This document shows, piece by piece, positions 1 through 6,350 of a stretch of DNA of 6,350 bases. The notes beneath the pieces were generated by a model. It was not told where the DNA came from. It saw only the letters and a program-made list of their open reading frames with translations, and did no database searches. This stretch comes from a virus (taxonomy: Duplodnaviria; Heunggongvirae; Uroviricota; Caudoviricetes), in the IMG/VR virus record IMGVR_UViG_3300029461_000060; one strand, written 5' to 3'. The translations under genes and the position numbers were made by a program. Positions within the stretch are counted from its first letter, which is position 1, and each line of letters opens with the position of its first letter.

Positions 1-1644
1 GCTGCGGCTAACAGCCAGAAAGCTGCGAAGACGAGTGAAACTAACGCAAAGTCCAGCCAGACGGCAGCGAAGACCAGCGAAACGAATGCCAAAGCCAGCG
101 AAACTGCGGCAAAAAACAGTCAGGATGCAGCGGCCCAAAGCGAGAGTGCCGCAGCTGGTTCTGCAAGTGCGGCAGCTAATAGCCAAAAAGCTGCAAAAAC
201 CAGTGAAACTAACGCAAAGACGAGTGAAACAAAAGCAGCAGCCAGCGAGATAGAAGCAACGTCAGCCGCAACAAGAGCAGAGAATGCAGCCCGGATTGCA
301 GAAGATGCCGCTGATCCTGCTTCAGTCCCTCCGCTTCCTGATATCTGGCTACCCTTGAATGATTCTCTGGAAGCGATAACAGGGTATGCCCCGGGCTATA
401 AAACAATAACCATCGGCAGTGATGAAATAACAATGCCTGTTAATGGCATATGCCAATTTAGCCGCGCTTCATCAGCAACGTATATTGATAAGTCCGGGCA
501 TATTACCGTGGCAGGGAATAACGTTCCTCGTTTTGAAAAATATGGTTTGCTGATAGAGAATCAGCGAACAAACATGTTCGTAAATAGTTTTAATCCTGAT
601 GCGTGGAATAAAAGCGGTGGTATATCTGTAACATCATCAACAGATGAATTTGAGTTTAAATATGGACGTTTCACAGTAGGAAGCGACATAGCAGGAACGA
701 CAACAGGGAGAAATATATGCACAGTTGCTGGTAATAAAGGCATAGATGTGACTGGCGATGATCAGTACAGTAAAGGTCCGTATGTTACCGCGTCGTTCAG
801 GGTAAGAAGTGATCTCAATGTTCGCGCACGTATCCGTTTTGAACGGTATAACTCGGAAGGATACACTTTCCTTTGTGACGCCTATTTGTCATTACAGACT
901 CATGAACTACAAATTACGGGTGGTAATGCCCAGCTATTAACAGCAAACTTTGAAATCGACCCTGGTAGTGGATGGATATATTTTCAGGCAACACTGAAAT
1001 GTCTGCCAGAATGGGGAATGGTTGGTACGCAGCTGCAAATTGCAGCCGACAGAGCAGTGGGGGCTTTTGCAACAGGTGACTGGATAGAAGTAACCACCCC
1101 GCAATTCGAGTATGGTGCTTGTGCAACTTCCTTTATCATAACGACAACAGAGCCAGCGACTCGTGCATCAGATTTATGTAAATTTCCGCTGATGAAAAAT
1201 ATGTATACCATGCCTTTTACGTTCATGGTGGAAGTCCATAAAAACTGGTTTATTTCTCATAATGCTGCACCGCGTGTCATTGATTCAGAAAATCACCAGT
1301 CCGGAGGCCCATTTATTATGGGGTTTGGTTCTTCTGGAACTATCAGTCAGGATGGTTATTCGTATTGCGATATAGGCGGGGCTAACCGGCGTGTATATGA
1401 GTCATGCGGAGTAAGAGATCTCGTTATGGGATTCAGGGTTAAGGCTGACGGCATGACATGCTCATTTGCAAATAAGCATATAAGCACTGAAACCAAAACA
1501 GTATGGAAATATATTCGTGAAGCAGCCGTGATTCGAATCGGGGGGCAAACGACGACAGGATTACGACACCTTAATGGTCATATAAAAAACCTCCGTTTCT
1601 GGAACAGAGCATTGTCAGATACGCAGCTTAAGGAATACGTATAA
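1..1644 (+). CDS. Side tail fibre protein, 5'-partial (Stf-like shaft repeats plus a distal lectin-like receptor-binding tip)
   Basis: Frame 1 is open from nt 1 with no stop until TAA at 1642-1644, so the gene starts upstream of the window; the ORF track begins at TTG 355 only because there is no in-frame start earlier. Residues from nt 1-250 read AANSQKAAKTSETNAKSSQTAAKTSETNAKASETAAKNSQDAAAQSESAAAGSASAAANSQKAAKTSETNAK, which matches the Ala/Lys/Ser/Glu-rich 'phage tail fibre repeat' of lambda Stf-type fibres (from memory). The C-terminus ends LNGHIKNLRFWNRALSDTQLKEYV (nt 1570-1641), resembling the C-terminal signature of concanavalin A-like/LamG-type lectin domains (from memory, not searched). 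Confidence 0.8.
   Translation, partial: AAANSQKAAKTSETNAKSSQTAAKTSETNAKASETAAKNSQDAAAQSESAAAGSASAAANSQKAAKTSETNAKTSETKAAASEIEATSAATRAENAARIAEDAADPASVPPLPDIWLPLNDSLEAITGYAPGYKTITIGSDEITMPVNGICQFSRASSATYIDKSGHITVAGNNVPRFEKYGLLIENQRTNMFVNSFNPDAWNKSGGISVTSSTDEFEFKYGRFTVGSDIAGTTTGRNICTVAGNKGIDVTGDDQYSKGPYVTASFRVRSDLNVRARIRFERYNSEGYTFLCDAYLSLQTHELQITGGNAQLLTANFEIDPGSGWIYFQATLKCLPEWGMVGTQLQIAADRAVGAFATGDWIEVTTPQFEYGACATSFIITTTEPATRASDLCKFPLMKNMYTMPFTFMVEVHKNWFISHNAAPRVIDSENHQSGGPFIMGFGSSGTISQDGYSYCDIGGANRRVYESCGVRDLVMGFRVKADGMTCSFANKHISTETKTVWKYIREAAVIRIGGQTTTGLRHLNGHIKNLRFWNRALSDTQLKEYV
16..218 (+). repeat. Degenerate ~36-bp in-frame coding repeats of the fibre shaft
   Basis: cagaaagctgcgaagacgagtgaaactaacgcaaag (16-51) and caaaaagctgcaaaaaccagtgaaactaacgcaaag (183-218) are near-identical; acggcagcgaagaccagcgaaacgaatgccaaagcc (61-96) is a more diverged copy. 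All encode (Q/T)(K/A)AAKTSETNAK-type units. Confidence 0.7.
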
Positions 1645-1913
1645 TGCGGGATATAACATTACGATTCGATAACAGAGAACAGTTTAACGCAATTGTATAT
1701 GACAGTGGCCTGTTCAGTCTTGAAGAAGAAAATGGGGTTCTTGTTGATGTTATTGGCTGCATTATTGATTACGAGGAGCCAGAAAACGAAAGATGTACGG
1801 GCATTGATCGCGGTGGTTTTTTCGTAAACATGAGGATTGTTGATAGCAGTAAAAACATATCTTCTTTAATGCCTTTCATTACGACAGATCAGCATGTAAG
1901 GACATGGGCTTAA
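1644..1913 (+). CDS. Hypothetical small acidic protein (89 aa), translationally coupled to the upstream fibre gene
   Basis: ATG at 1644 overlaps the upstream TAA by 1 nt (TAATG); aagga at 1630-1634 is a plausible Shine-Dalgarno. No transmembrane segment and no motif I recognise. Its position between two fibre genes suggests a fibre-associated accessory or chaperone role, but that is inference only. Confidence 0.5.
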   Translation: MRDITLRFDNREQFNAIVYDSGLFSLEEENGVLVDVIGCIIDYEEPENERCTGIDRGGFFVNMRIVDSSKNISSLMPFITTDQHVRTWA

Positions 1914-1925
1914 TGGAGTAAGACA

Positions 1926-2966
1926 ATGGTTACAAAAACAGTAATTCCTGATGACATCAAAACGCTAAAATCGGATGTTAGTAAATTAAAAACCGATCAA
2001 GGAAACTACGCAACAAAATCTTATGTAGACAATAAAACAACATGGAATGGTTATTGCAATGTAATCTATGATCAAAAAACATTGCCAACAACTGGAACTA
2101 TATTCAGCGGTAAGCTGCATTTGTCAAATAAGACTGGTGAAACGGAAAACGCTTATAGTGACATATATACCAGAAAAAATATTGATGGTACTAAAGATAC
2201 AATGACGAGGATCGTCACACATAACGGGACAAAAGGTATCTTTTGGGACTTTAGTGATCTTTACGGAGGAACTTTAATTTTTCCAGGCAGTGATGGTTAC
2301 CTTAAGATGGGGAACTGTCTCATGTCGTATGGTGTGCGGGGAAGTAACGCGCTTATTAAGTTTGATAATACAGACTCATTGCAGATCAAATATGCTAATC
2401 ACGGGTCGACCATGACACTAAACACGCAAGGTACGGCGTATTCTGGTGTGTCGACGTTATTATGGGGAAATTCCAGTCGTCCAGTTGTTTATGAAATTAG
2501 GGATGATGGCGGGCTTTTTTTGTTTTATGCACAAAGGAACCCAGATAAAACCTATCAGCTTGAGATAAACGGGTCATGCAAGGCTACATCATTCGACCAG
2601 GTGTCGGACAGAGATCTTAAAGAAAACATTCAGGTTATTGATAATGCCACTGAGCGCATCAGATTAATGAATGGGTATACTTACCGTCTCAAGTCTAATG
2701 GTATGCCTTATGCTGGCGTTATTGCGCAAGAGGCACTTAATGCAATCCCTGAATCAGTTGGTAGCACAATAAAGTACAAGAGCGGGGACAATGGGTCTGA
2801 TGGAGAAGAGGGAGAAAGATACTATACCGTTGATTACTCAGGCGTAACGGGTTTGCTTGTTCAGGTAGCCAGAGAGTCAGACGACAGGATAACAGCACTG
2901 GAAGAAGAAAACGCAGAATTAAGACAAAGATTATCTGCAATTGAGGCGGCGCTTGCGTCTAAATAA
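1926..2966 (+). CDS. Second tail fibre/tailspike-like protein with a C-terminal intramolecular chaperone auto-processing domain (peptidase S74-type)
   Basis: Good Shine-Dalgarno GGAG at 1916-1919, 6 nt before ATG 1926. The C-terminal ~120 aa start with SDRDLKENIQVIDNATERIRLMNGYTY, a Ser-X4-Lys arrangement followed by conserved hydrophobic positions, and end in a heptad-like helix ITALEEENAELRQRLSAIEAALASK. This is the pattern of the auto-cleaving C-terminal chaperone domain described for phage K1F endosialidase and T5 L-shaped tail fibre. Confidence 0.8.
   Translation: MVTKTVIPDDIKTLKSDVSKLKTDQGNYATKSYVDNKTTWNGYCNVIYDQKTLPTTGTIFSGKLHLSNKTGETENAYSDIYTRKNIDGTKDTMTRIVTHNGTKGIFWDFSDLYGGTLIFPGSDGYLKMGNCLMSYGVRGSNALIKFDNTDSLQIKYANHGSTMTLNTQGTAYSGVSTLLWGNSSRPVVYEIRDDGGLFLFYAQRNPDKTYQLEINGSCKATSFDQVSDRDLKENIQVIDNATERIRLMNGYTYRLKSNGMPYAGVIAQEALNAIPESVGSTIKYKSGDNGSDGEEGERYYTVDYSGVTGLLVQVARESDDRITALEEENAELRQRLSAIEAALASK
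2604..2966 (+). other. Predicted intramolecular chaperone (S74-type) domain; candidate autoproteolysis site at the Ser codon 2604-2606
   Basis: tcg gac aga gat ctt aaa at 2604-2621 encodes S-D-R-D-L-K, in frame with the ATG at 1926. Ser and Lys five residues apart correspond to the catalytic dyad of S74-type domains (established for endosialidase, from memory). Confidence 0.6.
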
Positions 2967-2972
2967 TATTAA

Positions 2973-2995
2973 GGGGCCGAGCGCCCCGTTTTATT
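2973..2995 (+). terminator. Rho-independent terminator of the fibre operon
   Basis: ggggc (2973-2977) pairs with gcccc (2983-2987) around loop cgagc, followed by gttttatt. It lies 7 nt after the TAA at 2964-2966. Confidence 0.65.
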
Positions 2996-3308
2996 GGGTA
3001 GGATGAAAATGGATATAACACCTNNNNNNNNNNNNNNNNNNNNNNNNNNNNNNNNNNNNNNNNNNNNNNNNNNNNNNNNNNNCGGGAACTGGGCTTACGG
3101 AGCGATAGCCGGTTGTACGTTCTTCATTGCGCGTGAACACACCCAGGCAGAATATCGCTGGATTGAAATGTTCGGGCATGGCAAGCGTATGAATATGCCG
3201 TGGTGGGGCGGTTTTGATCCACGCGCGTGGGATGTGGCAAGCATGATGGATTTTGCTGTGCCGGTGGTGGCGTGTCTGCTGGTCTGGCGGTTAGTTAATC
3301 GTGGGTGA
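2994..3308 (+). CDS. Hypothetical small membrane protein, interrupted by the N-run (start and frame continuity uncertain)
   Basis: After the gap, 3083-3305 reads GNWAYGAIAGCTFFIAREHTQAEYRWIEMFGHGKRMNMPWWGGFDPRAWDVASMMDFAVPVVACLLVWRLVNRG with TGA at 3306-3308. There are two hydrophobic stretches (AYGAIAGCTFFIA and FAVPVVACLLVWRLV). Codon choice is E. coli-like (CTG, GTG, GCG, CGT, CCG), unlike the flanking AT-rich DNA. The part 5' of the gap (MGRMKMDITP) cannot be trusted to be in the same frame. Confidence 0.4.
   Translation: MGRMKMDITPXXXXXXXXXXXXXXXXXXXXGNWAYGAIAGCTFFIAREHTQAEYRWIEMFGHGKRMNMPWWGGFDPRAWDVASMMDFAVPVVACLLVWRLVNRG
3024..3082. other. Assembly gap or masked stretch (59 N)
   Basis: Uninterrupted run of n characters; true length and sequence are unknown. 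Confidence 0.99.
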
Positions 3309-3754
3309 AAAAGCATGTTTAGTGTACTTTCCCGAAACTGATAGTAAGTGGCGAGATTAATTACCTGCTTCAGACTGAATGATTTTTTGCAAGCGCCACA
3401 GAAGTAATAGGGGTGAGTGAAAAAATATTATATATTAATGAATTGCGTTATTGCATCATCAGCTCAAAATGATGAATAACTAGAATTCCTGTCATAGCAT
3501 TAATGGCTGAATTGGTGGGATGATATATCAGATAGAGTATCAATAAAAGCTGGAATGCATGTGGATTCAAATGGTTTTTGGCTAGATGATACTTATATCA
3601 TATATTATATGAAGTATTTTAATGTTGCTCTGGAGGGAAATAGTGAGAGATGCACGGCGAAGCACGTCTTGAACTAAATATACACAAGTAAATCATGCTT
3701 TCGCCGCTGTATTAGAGCTTTGTTTCAGATTTGTTAATCGCCAGGTATTACCCC

Positions 3755-3776
3755 ACCAAAAAAATGATTTTTTGGT
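3755..3776 (-). terminator. AT-rich palindrome just downstream of the KAP NTPase stop (possible weak terminator)
   Basis: accaaaaaa (3755-3763) and ttttttggt (3768-3776) are exact reverse complements around loop atga. It lies 14-35 nt beyond the minus-strand stop (TGA, complement of 3790-3792). The stem has only 3 G-C pairs and there is no separate U-tract, so it is weak. Confidence 0.3.
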
Positions 3777-3789
3777 AAAGTGGATGTTC

Positions 3790-5532
3790 TCATAATTTGT
3801 TAATGGCAATTTTAACTGTTCTGTTTAGATCGTATATGGCTCCAAATTTAAAGCTTTCTTTATAGGAAAGGCAAAAAATATCAAGTTTTTGACTAAGATA
3901 AATAAGTTTGTTTTTTTCATTAGTGGCGAATTGTTTTATGTTGCTGATTTGATAGTTGCTACGCAAGAAAGAACTAAATTGCTCAATATCATTAACTGCC
4001 CAATTCTTTAAAACGCATTTTGTTACAAATGATACACCAAGTACTTCAAGCGGCTTATAATTTCCGAATGGATCTAAAGTGGTTAATTGGTTAGCATTGA
4101 ATGATGCCCAGCCATTCAATTCTAATTGCAACTTAATAGTGTTGAGTTCACGCATTTTGATCGTGCTTTCATAACGGTAAAATGAAATTGAGTACAGCAA
4201 TTTGCTATCTTCAAAACCACTATTTAAGCTATTTTTTCTATCAAGTGAGTATAGCTCAAAGCATTCTGCAACTTCATTGTCAGTGAATCCGTTCAGAATC
4301 GAAGTGACAAACTTTAGAGTTATAATTGGTGATTTTGGTAGGTATTTATGTGTGGTTAAATACTCATAATTCTGAAACGCTTTTATCCATTCATAGAAAT
4401 TACAGTCAATCTTACGGCAAATTAAGTCGACAAGTGTATTTGAAAGTTCCTTTTCATTTATCTCATGTAATTCTGGACGTGCTGATATTGCAATTTCTCT
4501 CATAGTAAGCCGTTTTGCTTCATAAAACAAAACATCCAATATGTCATTTAATGAAGCTTGTCCGCTATAATACCTTTTAATCTCAGGTTTTATTTTGTAA
4601 TTATTCAATGCTAACCATAGCACTCTCTCACTATCACTTGATTTCTCGGTGTTTAATAAAAAAGTTGGATCTTTGTCCTTGAGAAGATCCTCAAGAGAGT
4701 GATTATGCAAAAATAATAAAATGAAGAAAGAGCATATTGAGTTTAAAAGAATTGTTGATGGTATTCGCCAAGAAAGATGAGGATATGATTTAACGTATTC
4801 ATATAATGGCGTAACTGTGTCCAAAATACGCATCAAAATACGGATGTTAACTATGTTGTTATTTTTTACTATATCCTCAAAGAGAATTTTATCTTCCTGT
4901 GGGAATTGGGAAAGCTTTCCATTTATTATATCTATATCCAATATTTCCTCTGGATGCGGATTATAATGAAGTGTTTCTGCAATGAGTTTTTCCTTGTGTT
5001 CTATTTTTAAACCAGACTCAGTTGATGTATTGGTAATAATAATAAAGTCTAAATTTGAGTTCATCTCGGACATATAAAGAGAATGGCAATATGTCAAAAT
5101 TTCACTAACTAATGATTTTTCGGATATTCTCTCTATATCATCCAATATAAAAATACCATCCAGTTTTGATAAAATGTTTTCTCTAACACTTGCACCAATA
5201 GAATTAAACATGCTGTTAATAATATTGGCACTTGCAGGTGAGCCGCTGGCAATGCTACCTATCCCTGATAGACTTTCGAGCCCGGATTTAAATGTTTGTA
5301 TATCTTGCAGGTAGTAACAATCTATAATTTTAGCTTTGAAATCTGATAAGGATTTAATACCTAGTAAAGAAATATAATAGAAAATGTTTTTATCATAGTA
5401 CTTGGGGAATTTTTTTCTGATAAAGTGAGTCTTTCCTGTGCCCCAGCTCCCATCAAGCAAAATCAGACCATCTCTTTTTTGTGAAAGTAGATGTATTATT
5501 TTTATAATAAGATTGCTGTTAGAGTATTTCAT
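3790..5532 (-). CDS. KAP-family P-loop NTPase (PifA-like), candidate phage-exclusion/abortive-infection protein
   Basis: Minus-strand ORF. The ORF track starts at TTG (5533-5535), but the adjacent ATG (complement of 5530-5532) is the more likely start. Walker A GSWGTGKT is at 5428-5451 (reverse complement gggagctggggcacaggaaagact, checked by hand). Walker B-like FILDDIER is at 5128-5151. The GxWGxGKT P-loop plus hhhDDxxR Walker B is the KAP NTPase signature (from memory). The gene is about 30% GC by hand count, well below its neighbours. Confidence 0.75.
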   Translation of the reverse strand: MKYSNSNLIIKIIHLLSQKRDGLILLDGSWGTGKTHFIRKKFPKYYDKNIFYYISLLGIKSLSDFKAKIIDCYYLQDIQTFKSGLESLSGIGSIASGSPASANIINSMFNSIGASVRENILSKLDGIFILDDIERISEKSLVSEILTYCHSLYMSEMNSNLDFIIITNTSTESGLKIEHKEKLIAETLHYNPHPEEILDIDIINGKLSQFPQEDKILFEDIVKNNNIVNIRILMRILDTVTPLYEYVKSYPHLSWRIPSTILLNSICSFFILLFLHNHSLEDLLKDKDPTFLLNTEKSSDSERVLWLALNNYKIKPEIKRYYSGQASLNDILDVLFYEAKRLTMREIAISARPELHEINEKELSNTLVDLICRKIDCNFYEWIKAFQNYEYLTTHKYLPKSPIITLKFVTSILNGFTDNEVAECFELYSLDRKNSLNSGFEDSKLLYSISFYRYESTIKMRELNTIKLQLELNGWASFNANQLTTLDPFGNYKPLEVLGVSFVTKCVLKNWAVNDIEQFSSFLRSNYQISNIKQFATNEKNKLIYLSQKLDIFCLSYKESFKFGAIYDLNRTVKIAINKL

Positions 5533-5589
5533 CAAGTTTTCTGGCTCGCTGTTAAAAATAAAACAGTATATGAAAATAATTTTCCTGTA

Positions 5590-5618
5590 ATCTTATAAAA
5601 AATGATAATCCATCTCAA
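5590..5618 (-). promoter_or_regulatory. Putative sigma70-like promoter for the KAP NTPase gene
   Basis: On the minus strand, TTGAGA (complement of 5613-5618), a 17-nt spacer, then TAAGAT (complement of 5590-5595), about 60 nt upstream of the ATG. Found by eye in very AT-rich DNA, where chance matches are common. Confidence 0.2.
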
Positions 5619-6141
5619 ACAGCAGACACAAGGCTCCCTACTTGATTTTTAATCATCCGTACAGTGCGAGACACATCGTGCCAGATAAACTTACTTGTCG
5701 GTATTGTATCATCGGCAACTATCACCTCAGCCTCTTTTCTCCATCATCTGACCTCATACCCTAGTGAGCTTTATATGCCGACAGTGCTAGTAGTCGCTAG
5801 TCGTGAGAATTAACTAGATCATTGTCAGTTGCTGGCGTCACTATCAGGAAACCTTCCGCTTATCTTTCTTTAGGTTCGGATGGTGTCCATCTGTATTAAT
5901 TTGTGGTTACCATTAATTCGATGAATAAATAGTGTTATTTTTTGTCTCCTTCCTTTTCCGTTTGTACCAACAATCAGCGATATAAAGTCACAATTATCAA
6001 CTAAAACAGCCTGGTTAGACGATGTACTTCATTGAAGCGATGACAATGTTAGTCAATGTCAAACAGAGATAGTGCAATCACTACTTTTTTAGTGTTACCA
6101 TGATTTTACTGGGTGAAAAACTTGCTGTGTCGATTTTTCAT

Positions 6142-6164
6142 TTGTGTACCAAATTGTGTACCAA
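6142..6164 (+). repeat. Tandem direct repeat TTGTGTACCAA x2 (1-nt spacer) upstream of thrS
   Basis: Copies at 6142-6152 and 6154-6164; a related tttgtaccaa lies at 5961-5970. Each unit contains the GTAC palindrome. Confidence 0.6.
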
Positions 6165-6228
6165 TTTAGCGACTGTTGGCTAGATGGATGCGCAATGAAT
6201 TGAAAACAAACAAATTTTCTCTTTGTAT

Positions 6229-6270
6229 GTGATCTTTCGTGTGGGTCACCACTGCAAATAAGGATATAAA
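6229..6270 (+). promoter_or_regulatory. thrS: thrS translational operator: anticodon-like stem-loop plus Shine-Dalgarno
   Basis: GUGAUC (6229-6234) pairs with GGUCAC (6244-6249), with one G-U wobble, around a loop that exposes CGU (6238-6240) preceded by U, i.e. a tRNA-Thr(CGU) anticodon-loop mimic. aagga at 6260-6264 is the Shine-Dalgarno, 6 nt before ATG 6271. This is consistent with the known autoregulation of thrS, where the synthetase binds an anticodon-arm mimic in its own leader. Confidence 0.6.
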
Positions 6271-6350
6271 ATGCCTGTTATAACTCTTCCTGATGGCAGC
6301 CAACGCCATTACGATCACGCTGTAAGCCCCATGGATGTTGCGCTGGACAT
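6271..6350 (+). CDS. thrS: Threonine--tRNA ligase, 5' end only (3'-partial at window edge)
   Basis: Translation MPVITLPDGSQRHYDHAVSPMDVALD matches the enterobacterial ThrRS N-terminus as I recall it; good Shine-Dalgarno immediately upstream. Confidence 0.9.
   Translation, partial: MPVITLPDGSQRHYDHAVSPMDVALD

Follow-up and report, generated by a model that had tools for sequence, protein, structure and literature searches.

A widespread, probably branched side tail fiber cassette at the end of an Escherichia lambdoid prophage

We analyzed the tail fiber genes in a 6,350-nucleotide (nt) stretch of Caudoviricetes DNA, IMG/VR record IMGVR_UViG_3300029461_000060 (here called the window). Three co-directional open reading frames (ORFs) on the plus strand, which we name A, B, and C, together occupy positions 1 to 2966. 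They probably represent one allele of a widespread and modular side-fiber cassette, in which the tip of a proximal fiber (A) is paired with a small protein (B) and an optional distal fiber (C) would complete a branched fiber with two specificities. An earlier note on this DNA, made from the sequence alone, had described this layout, with a 1-nt overlap between A and B and a second fiber carrying a chaperone domain of the Peptidase_S74 (S74) type, and we found it as described. The note had gone on to suggest a dual or branched receptor-binding apparatus. This is also our best reading, and at the level of sequence comparison it draws on an N-terminal anchor shared by C proteins and on the finding of C together with the A tip and B in unrelated types of virion.

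The linkage between the A tip and B was strict. All of the loci picked by their B homologue (65/65) had an A-type tip ORF ending at the start of B, the two overlapping by 1, 4, or 8 nt, and all of those picked by the C-terminal domain of A (80/80) had B immediately downstream. Among species-representative genomes, both of those with the A domain (from two Escherichia species) also carried B. The distal gene was optional: C followed B in 37 of the 80 loci and was lacking from at least 30 of the 80 despite room for it. Where C was lacking, a gene of the ORF D type (described below) begins 10 nt after B, and in one group B is the last gene of the prophage, which there adjoins the host gene zntB. 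A large class of lambdoid prophages (among loci L067 to L146, and in L043 and L149) combined an A-type fiber of 598 or 686 to 690 amino acids (aa) with B and had no C. Because B persists in prophages without C, its functional partner appears to be A rather than C.

The complete three-gene cassette was found in several kinds of phage. It comes immediately after J and lom in the inducible lambdoid phages PhiR11_1, PhiR47_1, PhiR55_1, and Nesevirus 2G7b, and in prophages. It also occurs in the Queuovirinae (gp23 to gp25 of Nonagvirus JenP1, and Seuratvirus VogelGryff), in Tequintavirus (gp22 to gp24 of IrisVonRoten, and ORF137 to ORF135 of AKFV33), and after gpI in P2-like prophages (L065 and L066, positions 4001 to 8052), there with the tip joined to an N terminus of the gpH type. 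The cassette thus crosses the divide between siphoviruses and myoviruses. B homologues were also present on plasmids and in isolates of Drexlerviridae. Over the whole A tip, identity to all compared cassette members was 34 to 57%, and A of the window fits the C-terminal signature of the cassette (...GH[IV]RN.R.W...L.D.Q..E.V). Parts of window positions 1 to 3400 matched 1906 of the 5426 complete Escherichia coli genomes in our collection. The cassette is common in phages of Escherichia and Salmonella and is known in the literature.

ORF C matched PHROG 4563 ("tail fiber protein") with an E value of 5e-200, and a GGAG lies 8 nt upstream of its ATG. Its N-terminal anchor, MVTKTVIPDDIKTLK, fits a consensus of ∼15 aa, MxTxTxIPxDIxxLK. 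We found this motif in AKFV33 ORF135, in a 303-aa fiber of a P2-like prophage, and in 37 viral loci. The C alleles with an S74 chaperone differ widely in length (227, 234, 346, 388, and 574 to 586 aa), and all of them begin with the consensus; the 303-aa allele of the P2-like prophage, which is of the Gp34_trimer type, has the same anchor without S74. Mosaic breakpoints fall just past the anchor, at nt ∼1962 to 1969: PhiR55_1 matches the window over positions 1 to 1969, and JenP1 matches it over positions 1962 to 2894, with gp25 94% identical in nucleotide sequence to C from nt 1962 on. As judged by these comparisons, C is exchangeable yet retains its anchor, which is conserved in all C alleles, whether they are of the S74 type or dependent on a tail fiber assembly protein (Tfa).

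The chaperone of C was assigned with confidence. PF13884 matched aa 227 to 278 over profile positions 1 to 57 of 58, with an E value of 2.3e-12 and 47.4 bits against a gathering score of 22. The domain starts at profile position 1 with S227-D-R-D-L-K232, a match to the SDxxxK motif with its S-x-x-x-x-K pair; we take S227 and K232 to have catalytic roles, by analogy with the endosialidase of K1F. C also gave a weak match to the chaperone region of a long tail fiber (6f45). Cleavage at Ser227 is predicted to leave a mature part of 226 aa. Public annotation of the cassette proteins is inconsistent: in VogelGryff, the distal S74 fiber (bas25_0024; L006 4767 to 5933) is labeled "putative lateral tail fiber chaperone."

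ORF A is the 3′ part of a lambdoid side tail fiber of the proximal, Stf type, with its 5′ end cut off by the window edge. It matched PHROG 1419 ("tail protein") over profile positions 238 to 793 of 793 (E value, 1e-234), and its DNA is 93 to 97% identical to that of the "side tail fiber protein" of PhiR11_1, PhiR47_1, and PhiR55_1. Full-length homologues that share an identical tip (∼786 aa; 784 aa for the Stf of PhiR11_1) have the PF08400 prophage tail-fiber domain at the N terminus. The shaft region of A resembles the shafts of many tail-fiber PHROGs. Short ORFs of 41 to 74 aa that overlap it (positions 35 to 253 on the plus strand, and 41 to 166 and 209 to 433 on the minus strand) are by-products of the biased composition of the shaft repeats and not genes. 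Names given to A by PGAP are "phage head spike fiber domain-containing protein" or "prophage tail fiber N-terminal domain-containing protein."

Beyond the shaft, A has a globular tip of ∼440 aa made up of a neck, a variable beta-sandwich, and a C-terminal domain. Across 21 diverse alleles, the neck was the most conserved part of the tip (mean pairwise identity, 74%, with many invariant columns), and the central domain was the least conserved (mean identity, 43%). The C-terminal domain has a conserved framework around a variable core (aa 426 to 505). This pattern across the tip is the one expected of a variable receptor domain on a conserved scaffold. The NCBIfam model of a GTA head-spike-fiber domain, NF048003, matched aa 184 to 389 above its cutoff. 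AlphaFold2 (AF2) modeling of the tip from 17 homologues was confident for aa 193 to 374 only, with a predicted local distance difference test score (pLDDT) of 80 to 93, and gave a beta-sandwich, which we describe as similar to a carbohydrate-binding module (CBM).

The C-terminal end of the tip was harder to assign. Pfam Laminin_G_3 (PF13385) matched aa 495 to 543 (nt 1483 to 1629) with an E value of 6.5e-4 but, at 20.3 bits, fell short of the gathering score (27.6), and a match at an E value of ≤0.01 was present in 6 of 17 members of the A family. A PDB profile search with the C-terminal domain returned no match, and PDB sequence searches with A, B, and C gave nothing useful. The earlier note had based a lectin-like tip on a LamG/ConA-like signature at this end. 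The signature exists but is weak. A lectin-like tip as such is supported, mainly through the central domain with its NF048003 match and through the galectin-like domain of the homologous IrisVonRoten Gp22 (PMC11990801); the evidence is strongest for the central domain and not for the C-terminal stretch that the note had singled out.

The start codon of B shares exactly 1 base with the stop codon of A (TAATG), an arrangement by which B is predicted to be translationally coupled to A. B is a genuine gene: it matched PHROG 1361 (E value, 1e-30) and had no match in Pfam, NCBIfam, PADLOC, or PDB sequences. Searching a set of 5.8 billion proteins with an alignment as the query returned 350 homologues; a single-sequence query gave just 4, a result of the word-index limit. 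Among 1.8 billion cluster representatives the family comprises 91 clusters, essentially all of them free-standing proteins of ∼90 aa, with invariant residues M1, D3, F8, G38, G58, V61, N62, R64, I65, R86, and W88. An AF2 model built from 33 sequences was of moderate confidence (pLDDT, 67) and has an alpha/beta fold with beta-alpha-beta-beta-alpha topology. When this model was compared with viral models by Foldseek, only uncharacterized phage proteins of ∼80 to 105 aa were recovered. The B homologue is labeled "tail fiber protein" in IrisVonRoten (bas32_0023; L005 5001 to 5279) and "hypothetical protein" elsewhere.

Other identities for B were considered and rejected. The B profile also matched giant PKD-repeat proteins (P0272, P0278, P0287, P0300, P0316, and P0324), which raised a PKD/Ig-like domain as a candidate. 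These matches were sums over 5 to 11 repeats, each contributing 3 to 13 bits, and the likeness traced to a common strand resembling G-Y-x-V-x-V-x-x-x-D, which we take as a resemblance of motif and not homology. There was no Pfam PKD match, and the AF2 fold is alpha/beta; the matches to the six proteins are probably coincidences of motif, a very distant Ig/PKD relationship being the less likely alternative. B is not a Tfa homologue either, as the earlier note had also held: aligning the B family with Caudo_TAP by hhalign gave a probability of 0.5%.

No canonical Tfa was found in the window, again in agreement with that note. In Pfam, no ORF matched Caudo_TAP or any other Tfa family at an E value of ≤1, PHROG and NCBIfam gave none, and tblastn with Tfa proteins and remnants across the 6.35 kb recovered nothing (best E value, 2.5). 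The note had suggested that the second fiber folds without a Tfa, and the S74 chaperone of C points the same way: the lack of a Tfa here would follow from a distal allele of the chaperone-in-cis type. In the P2-like locus, the distal fiber without S74 is followed by a canonical Caudo_TAP Tfa. As these comparisons show, the architecture does not in itself entail the lack of a Tfa; whether one is present depends on the type of distal fiber. Related lambdoid phages and prophages have short remnants of the 3′ end of tfa (...LLEAWKKYRVLLNRVDTS...) immediately after the cassette (Table 1), whereas the window has none. These remnants suggest a recombination in which the cassette replaced most of tfa together with the 3′ portion of stf.

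In the mechanism that we consider probable, A would form a trimeric proximal side fiber fixed to the tail tip by the PF08400 N terminus seen in full-length copies. Its tip would bind O-antigen or capsule reversibly through the CBM-like domain and probably also through the variable core of the C-terminal domain; reversible polysaccharide binding is the role proposed for the lateral fibers of these phage groups. B, made in step with A and an obligate partner of this type of tip, would serve as an assembly factor or adaptor that is specific to the tip and stays there; it is unrelated to Tfa but takes the corresponding place in the genome. C would dock onto the unit of A tip and B by its ∼15-residue anchor and trimerize with the help of its own S74 chaperone, which may then cleave itself off at Ser227. 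Docking at this site is suggested because the A tip and B are the sole components common to all of the virion types that carry C. The second receptor-binding domain added by C would give a branched fiber with two specificities. The sequences themselves establish the gene structure, which domains are present, the linkage of the A tip to B, the optional and exchangeable nature of C, and its conserved anchor; glycan binding, the role of B, docking, and autocleavage are inferred.

The cassette has close parallels in phages whose fibers are already annotated; comparison with dual-fiber phages, as the earlier note had proposed, shows the same cassette in IrisVonRoten, AKFV33, and JenP1. IrisVonRoten (Bas32 of the BASEL collection) shares the three-gene order with overlapping junctions, an A tip that is 49 to 55% identical, and a B that is 36% identical (HMM E value, 2e-45); its gp24 has the same N-terminal anchor as C and an S74 chaperone. 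It differs in its T5-type N terminus and virion, in having no D gene, and in its distal fiber, which is "T-shaped" and 574 aa long with two receptor domains, compared with 346 aa in the window. In the BASEL-2 study, AlphaFold-Multimer models place this distal fiber, with its chaperone, on the proximal fiber, and the galectin-like domain at the C terminus of Gp22 is proposed as an extra receptor-binding domain (PMC11990801).

AKFV33 is a lytic T5-like phage with other receptor domains. Its ORF137 resembles A over the whole tip (34% identity; E value, 1e-74) and ends ...GHIRNLRIWNR.L.D.Q..E.V, its ORF136 is the B homologue, and its ORF135 opens with MTTYTNIPQDITKLK and has an SDRRLK chaperone site. 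The tail fiber of this phage was described in 2012 as two gene products, ORF137 and ORF135, with the B homologue undiscussed, and ORF137 was detected in virions by mass spectrometry (PMC3326045). Branched, L-shaped LtfA/LtfB fibers are reported for DT57C and DT571/2 and were established genetically for DT57C (PMC4728585, PMC10713586). The likeness of DT57C to the window is one of concept: a tail-bound proximal fiber bears a second fiber, and each has its own O-antigen specificity. Unlike the window, DT57C has no B homologue that we could find among 40 phage records with B.

More distant systems share single parts of the cassette. Lambda Stf/Tfa occupies the same slot after J and lom, and PF08400 is present in the full-length homologues of A; it differs from the window, in which the A tip is CBM-like and LamG-like, there is no Tfa, and B is unrelated to Caudo_TAP. 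The S74 fibers of the K1F endosialidase and T5 pb1 resemble C in the S74 domain, the Ser...Lys motif at its start, and the helical C terminus, whereas C would be very short once cleaved and would rely on a docking anchor in place of a virion-attachment domain. The domain model that matched the central domain of A above its cutoff is that of the head spike fiber of RcGTA, which binds capsular polysaccharide (PMC10218006). The RcGTA domain sits on a head spike and belongs to another host clade, while that of the window is on a tail fiber and its ligand is putative.

It is important to note that several observations weigh against a branched fiber with B at its tip. Lineages without C conserve the neck and B just as well, so that this conservation is not attributable to the docking of C. 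We infer the presence of B in the virion, its contact with A, and the docking of C on the two from comparison. The model of B is of the confidence given above and has generic fold matches only, and proteomics of AKFV33 covered four proteins, with neither ORF136 nor ORF135 among those reported (PMC3326045). For the C-terminal domain of A, the LamG_3 score is below threshold and the 17-sequence alignment yielded no confident AF2 model (pLDDT, ∼25). Finally, A is a 5′-truncated pseudogene in the nearest chromosomal relatives of the right half of the window, in an island next to thrS, and the copy in the window may therefore be a nonfunctional remnant.

This last point leads to the alternative that survives best, namely, that the prophage has decayed and carries the module in the window as dead cargo, from which no fiber is made. 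The window is the right end of a lambdoid prophage of Escherichia (E. coli), adjoining thrS, and covers the distal part of its late operon. It is a mosaic: positions 1 to 1969 (the A tip and the B allele) resemble phages of the PhiR11_1/PhiR55_1 type, and positions 1962 to 6350 (C and everything rightward) resemble the thrS-adjacent island of strains like E. coli 2452. In that strain, the nearest chromosomal relative, C and the downstream region are kept at ∼95% identity, with positions 3301 to 3800 100% identical, and the A tip and B are of another allele, its B being just 29 to 36% identical to that of the window. At its thrS locus, A is annotated as a pseudogene without an N terminus, fused behind a truncated rrrD, and there are no tail genes upstream; DLP12-like emrE, ybcK to ybcO, rusA, and the truncated rrrD abut the shortened A in this island (L001 1 to 13662). 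The combination seen in the window was found, at ≥80% coverage, in 0 records among the complete E. coli genomes of our collection.

The resemblance of the right half to an island with a broken A and no tail genes and the lack of the combination in any complete genome make decay a substantial possibility. Against it, the ORFs of B and C are intact, as is A as far as the window shows it, and the A, B, and C alleles occur at 99.8% identity inside a prophage with a complete set of tail genes. The 5′ end of A lies beyond the window, and decay would concern expression in situ and not the identity of the genes. In strain Ecol_881, a 99.8%-identical cassette lies beside appY-ompT-envY, the right junction of DLP12; this position, compared with the thrS locus of the closest relatives, suggests recombination between prophages or an inversion.

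A serious rival concerns B itself, which might have a purely catalytic role as a folding chaperone of the A tip, a Tfa analogue outside the virion, with C docking on the neck or the LamG-like domain of A. B is in the position of tfa, is coupled to a fiber gene in translation, and is linked to A with or without C, all of which would suit such a role, and yet it resembles none of the known chaperones. It also counts against this role that beta-sandwiches of the CBM-like and LamG-like kinds do not usually need a chaperone of their own to fold. The B homologue is not among the virion proteins detected in AKFV33 (PMC3326045), although a component of 10 kDa could have escaped so shallow a proteomic survey. 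In the BASEL-2 legend, the distal fiber is attached to the proximal fiber protein itself (PMC11990801); on the other side, it is the B homologue of the same phage, IrisVonRoten, that the record names a tail fiber protein. On balance, we regard a chaperone outside the virion as rather unlikely and prefer B as a component that stays at the tip.

It is also improbable that C is an independent fiber attached elsewhere on the tail, its adjacency to A and B reflecting co-transfer of receptor-binding genes. In favor of this reading, docking of C is deduced from comparison, many prophages have A and B without C, and at one locus (L063) the S74 protein encoded downstream lacks the anchor motif. Nevertheless, a C with the same anchor stands behind an A tip and B in three unrelated groups of siphoviruses and in P2-like myoviruses. 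These virion types share no other tail-tip or baseplate proteins, which leaves the unit of A tip and B as the sole common partner of C. The breakpoints immediately after the anchor, the published multimer models in which the distal fiber sits on the proximal one (PMC11990801), and the genetic precedent for branching in DT57C (PMC4728585, PMC10713586) further favor docking on the proximal fiber. As for the view of the earlier note that the module is unusual, and possibly a novel dual-fiber architecture marked by a missing Tfa, the window indeed has no Tfa and B is not one, but novelty is very hard to sustain for a cassette that is so common in E. coli genomes, was published as a two-gene fiber in AKFV33 in 2012 (PMC3326045) and modeled in BASEL-2, and has a Tfa whenever its distal allele is Tfa dependent.

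Table 1. Positions of the cassette parts and neighboring features in the window; positions given with a locus name (L) are those of that locus
Feature	Position	Strand	Description
ORF A	1-1644	+	frame 1, open from base 1 to TAA at 1642-1644; 547 aa visible
A shaft	1-315	+	aa 1-105; Ala/Ser/Thr/Lys-rich repeats; tandem DNA repeats of 21 and 42 nt
A neck	316-576	+	aa 106-192; PLPDIWLPLNDSL...PRFE..GLLIE.QRTN
A central domain	577-1122	+	aa 193-374; CBM-like beta-sandwich, putative glycan-binding
A C-terminal domain	1123-1641	+	aa 375-547; LamG_3/ConA-like signature at end
ORF B	1644-1913	+	89 aa
ORF C	1926-2966	+	346 aa
C N-terminal anchor	1926-1973	+	MVTKTVIPDDIKTLKS; kept in C alleles irrespective of tip
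C intramolecular chaperone, Peptidase_S74	2604-2963	+	aa 227-346; C-terminal coiled coil
Terminator-like hairpin	2973-2987	+	3′ of C; GC-rich hairpin GGGGCCGAGCGCCCC, then T-run GTTTTATT
ORF D	3003-3308	+	∼100 aa, hydrophobic; 58-N mask inside at 3025-3082
KAP-family P-loop NTPase gene	3790-5535	-	581 aa; Pfam E value, 8e-7
thrS	start 6272		
tfa remnant sites	L147 12322-12432; L004 9248-9546; L149 4521-4715		

The remaining features of the window lie to the right of the cassette (Table 1). Terminator-like sites, one of which follows C, numbered 5 compared with 1.1 expected. ORF D matched PHROG 1443 (E value, 1e-41), and in lambdoid prophages it always follows the last fiber gene, which is C in the window, PhiR11_1, and 2G7b and B where C is lacking. 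The T5-like, Queuovirinae, and P2-like versions of the cassette lack it. ORF D is lambdoid specific, is probably not part of the fiber, and may be a moron or a superinfection-exclusion gene. The KAP NTPase gene sits in an island of 32% GC between the prophage end and thrS, and its product matches the PADLOC candidate defense family PDC-S49 (E value, 7e-16) and PHROG 4740.

A broader proposal, which we put forward tentatively and hold to be somewhat doubtful, is that B stands for an uncharacterized class of accessory proteins unrelated to Tfa. Together with the neck, it might form a universal socket for distal fibers of any folding type, a plug-and-play system for host range in lambdoid, T5-like, Queuovirinae, and Drexlerviridae siphoviruses and in P2-like myoviruses. 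In a cassette that is otherwise ordinary and already described, interest remains in what the B family does and in what the socket for the anchor consists of. The B family is present in hundreds of phages, including model phages of the BASEL collection, and its role is a small and directly testable question.

The window is no discovery in itself; it adds a further allele to a cassette with an established influence on the host range of many coliphages. For the annotation of prophages, our comparisons indicate that whether tfa follows depends on the type of distal fiber. For phage engineering, they suggest that an A-type tip and its B are inseparable and should be moved together, and that the distal fiber may be swapped, with the boundary right after the 15-residue anchor.

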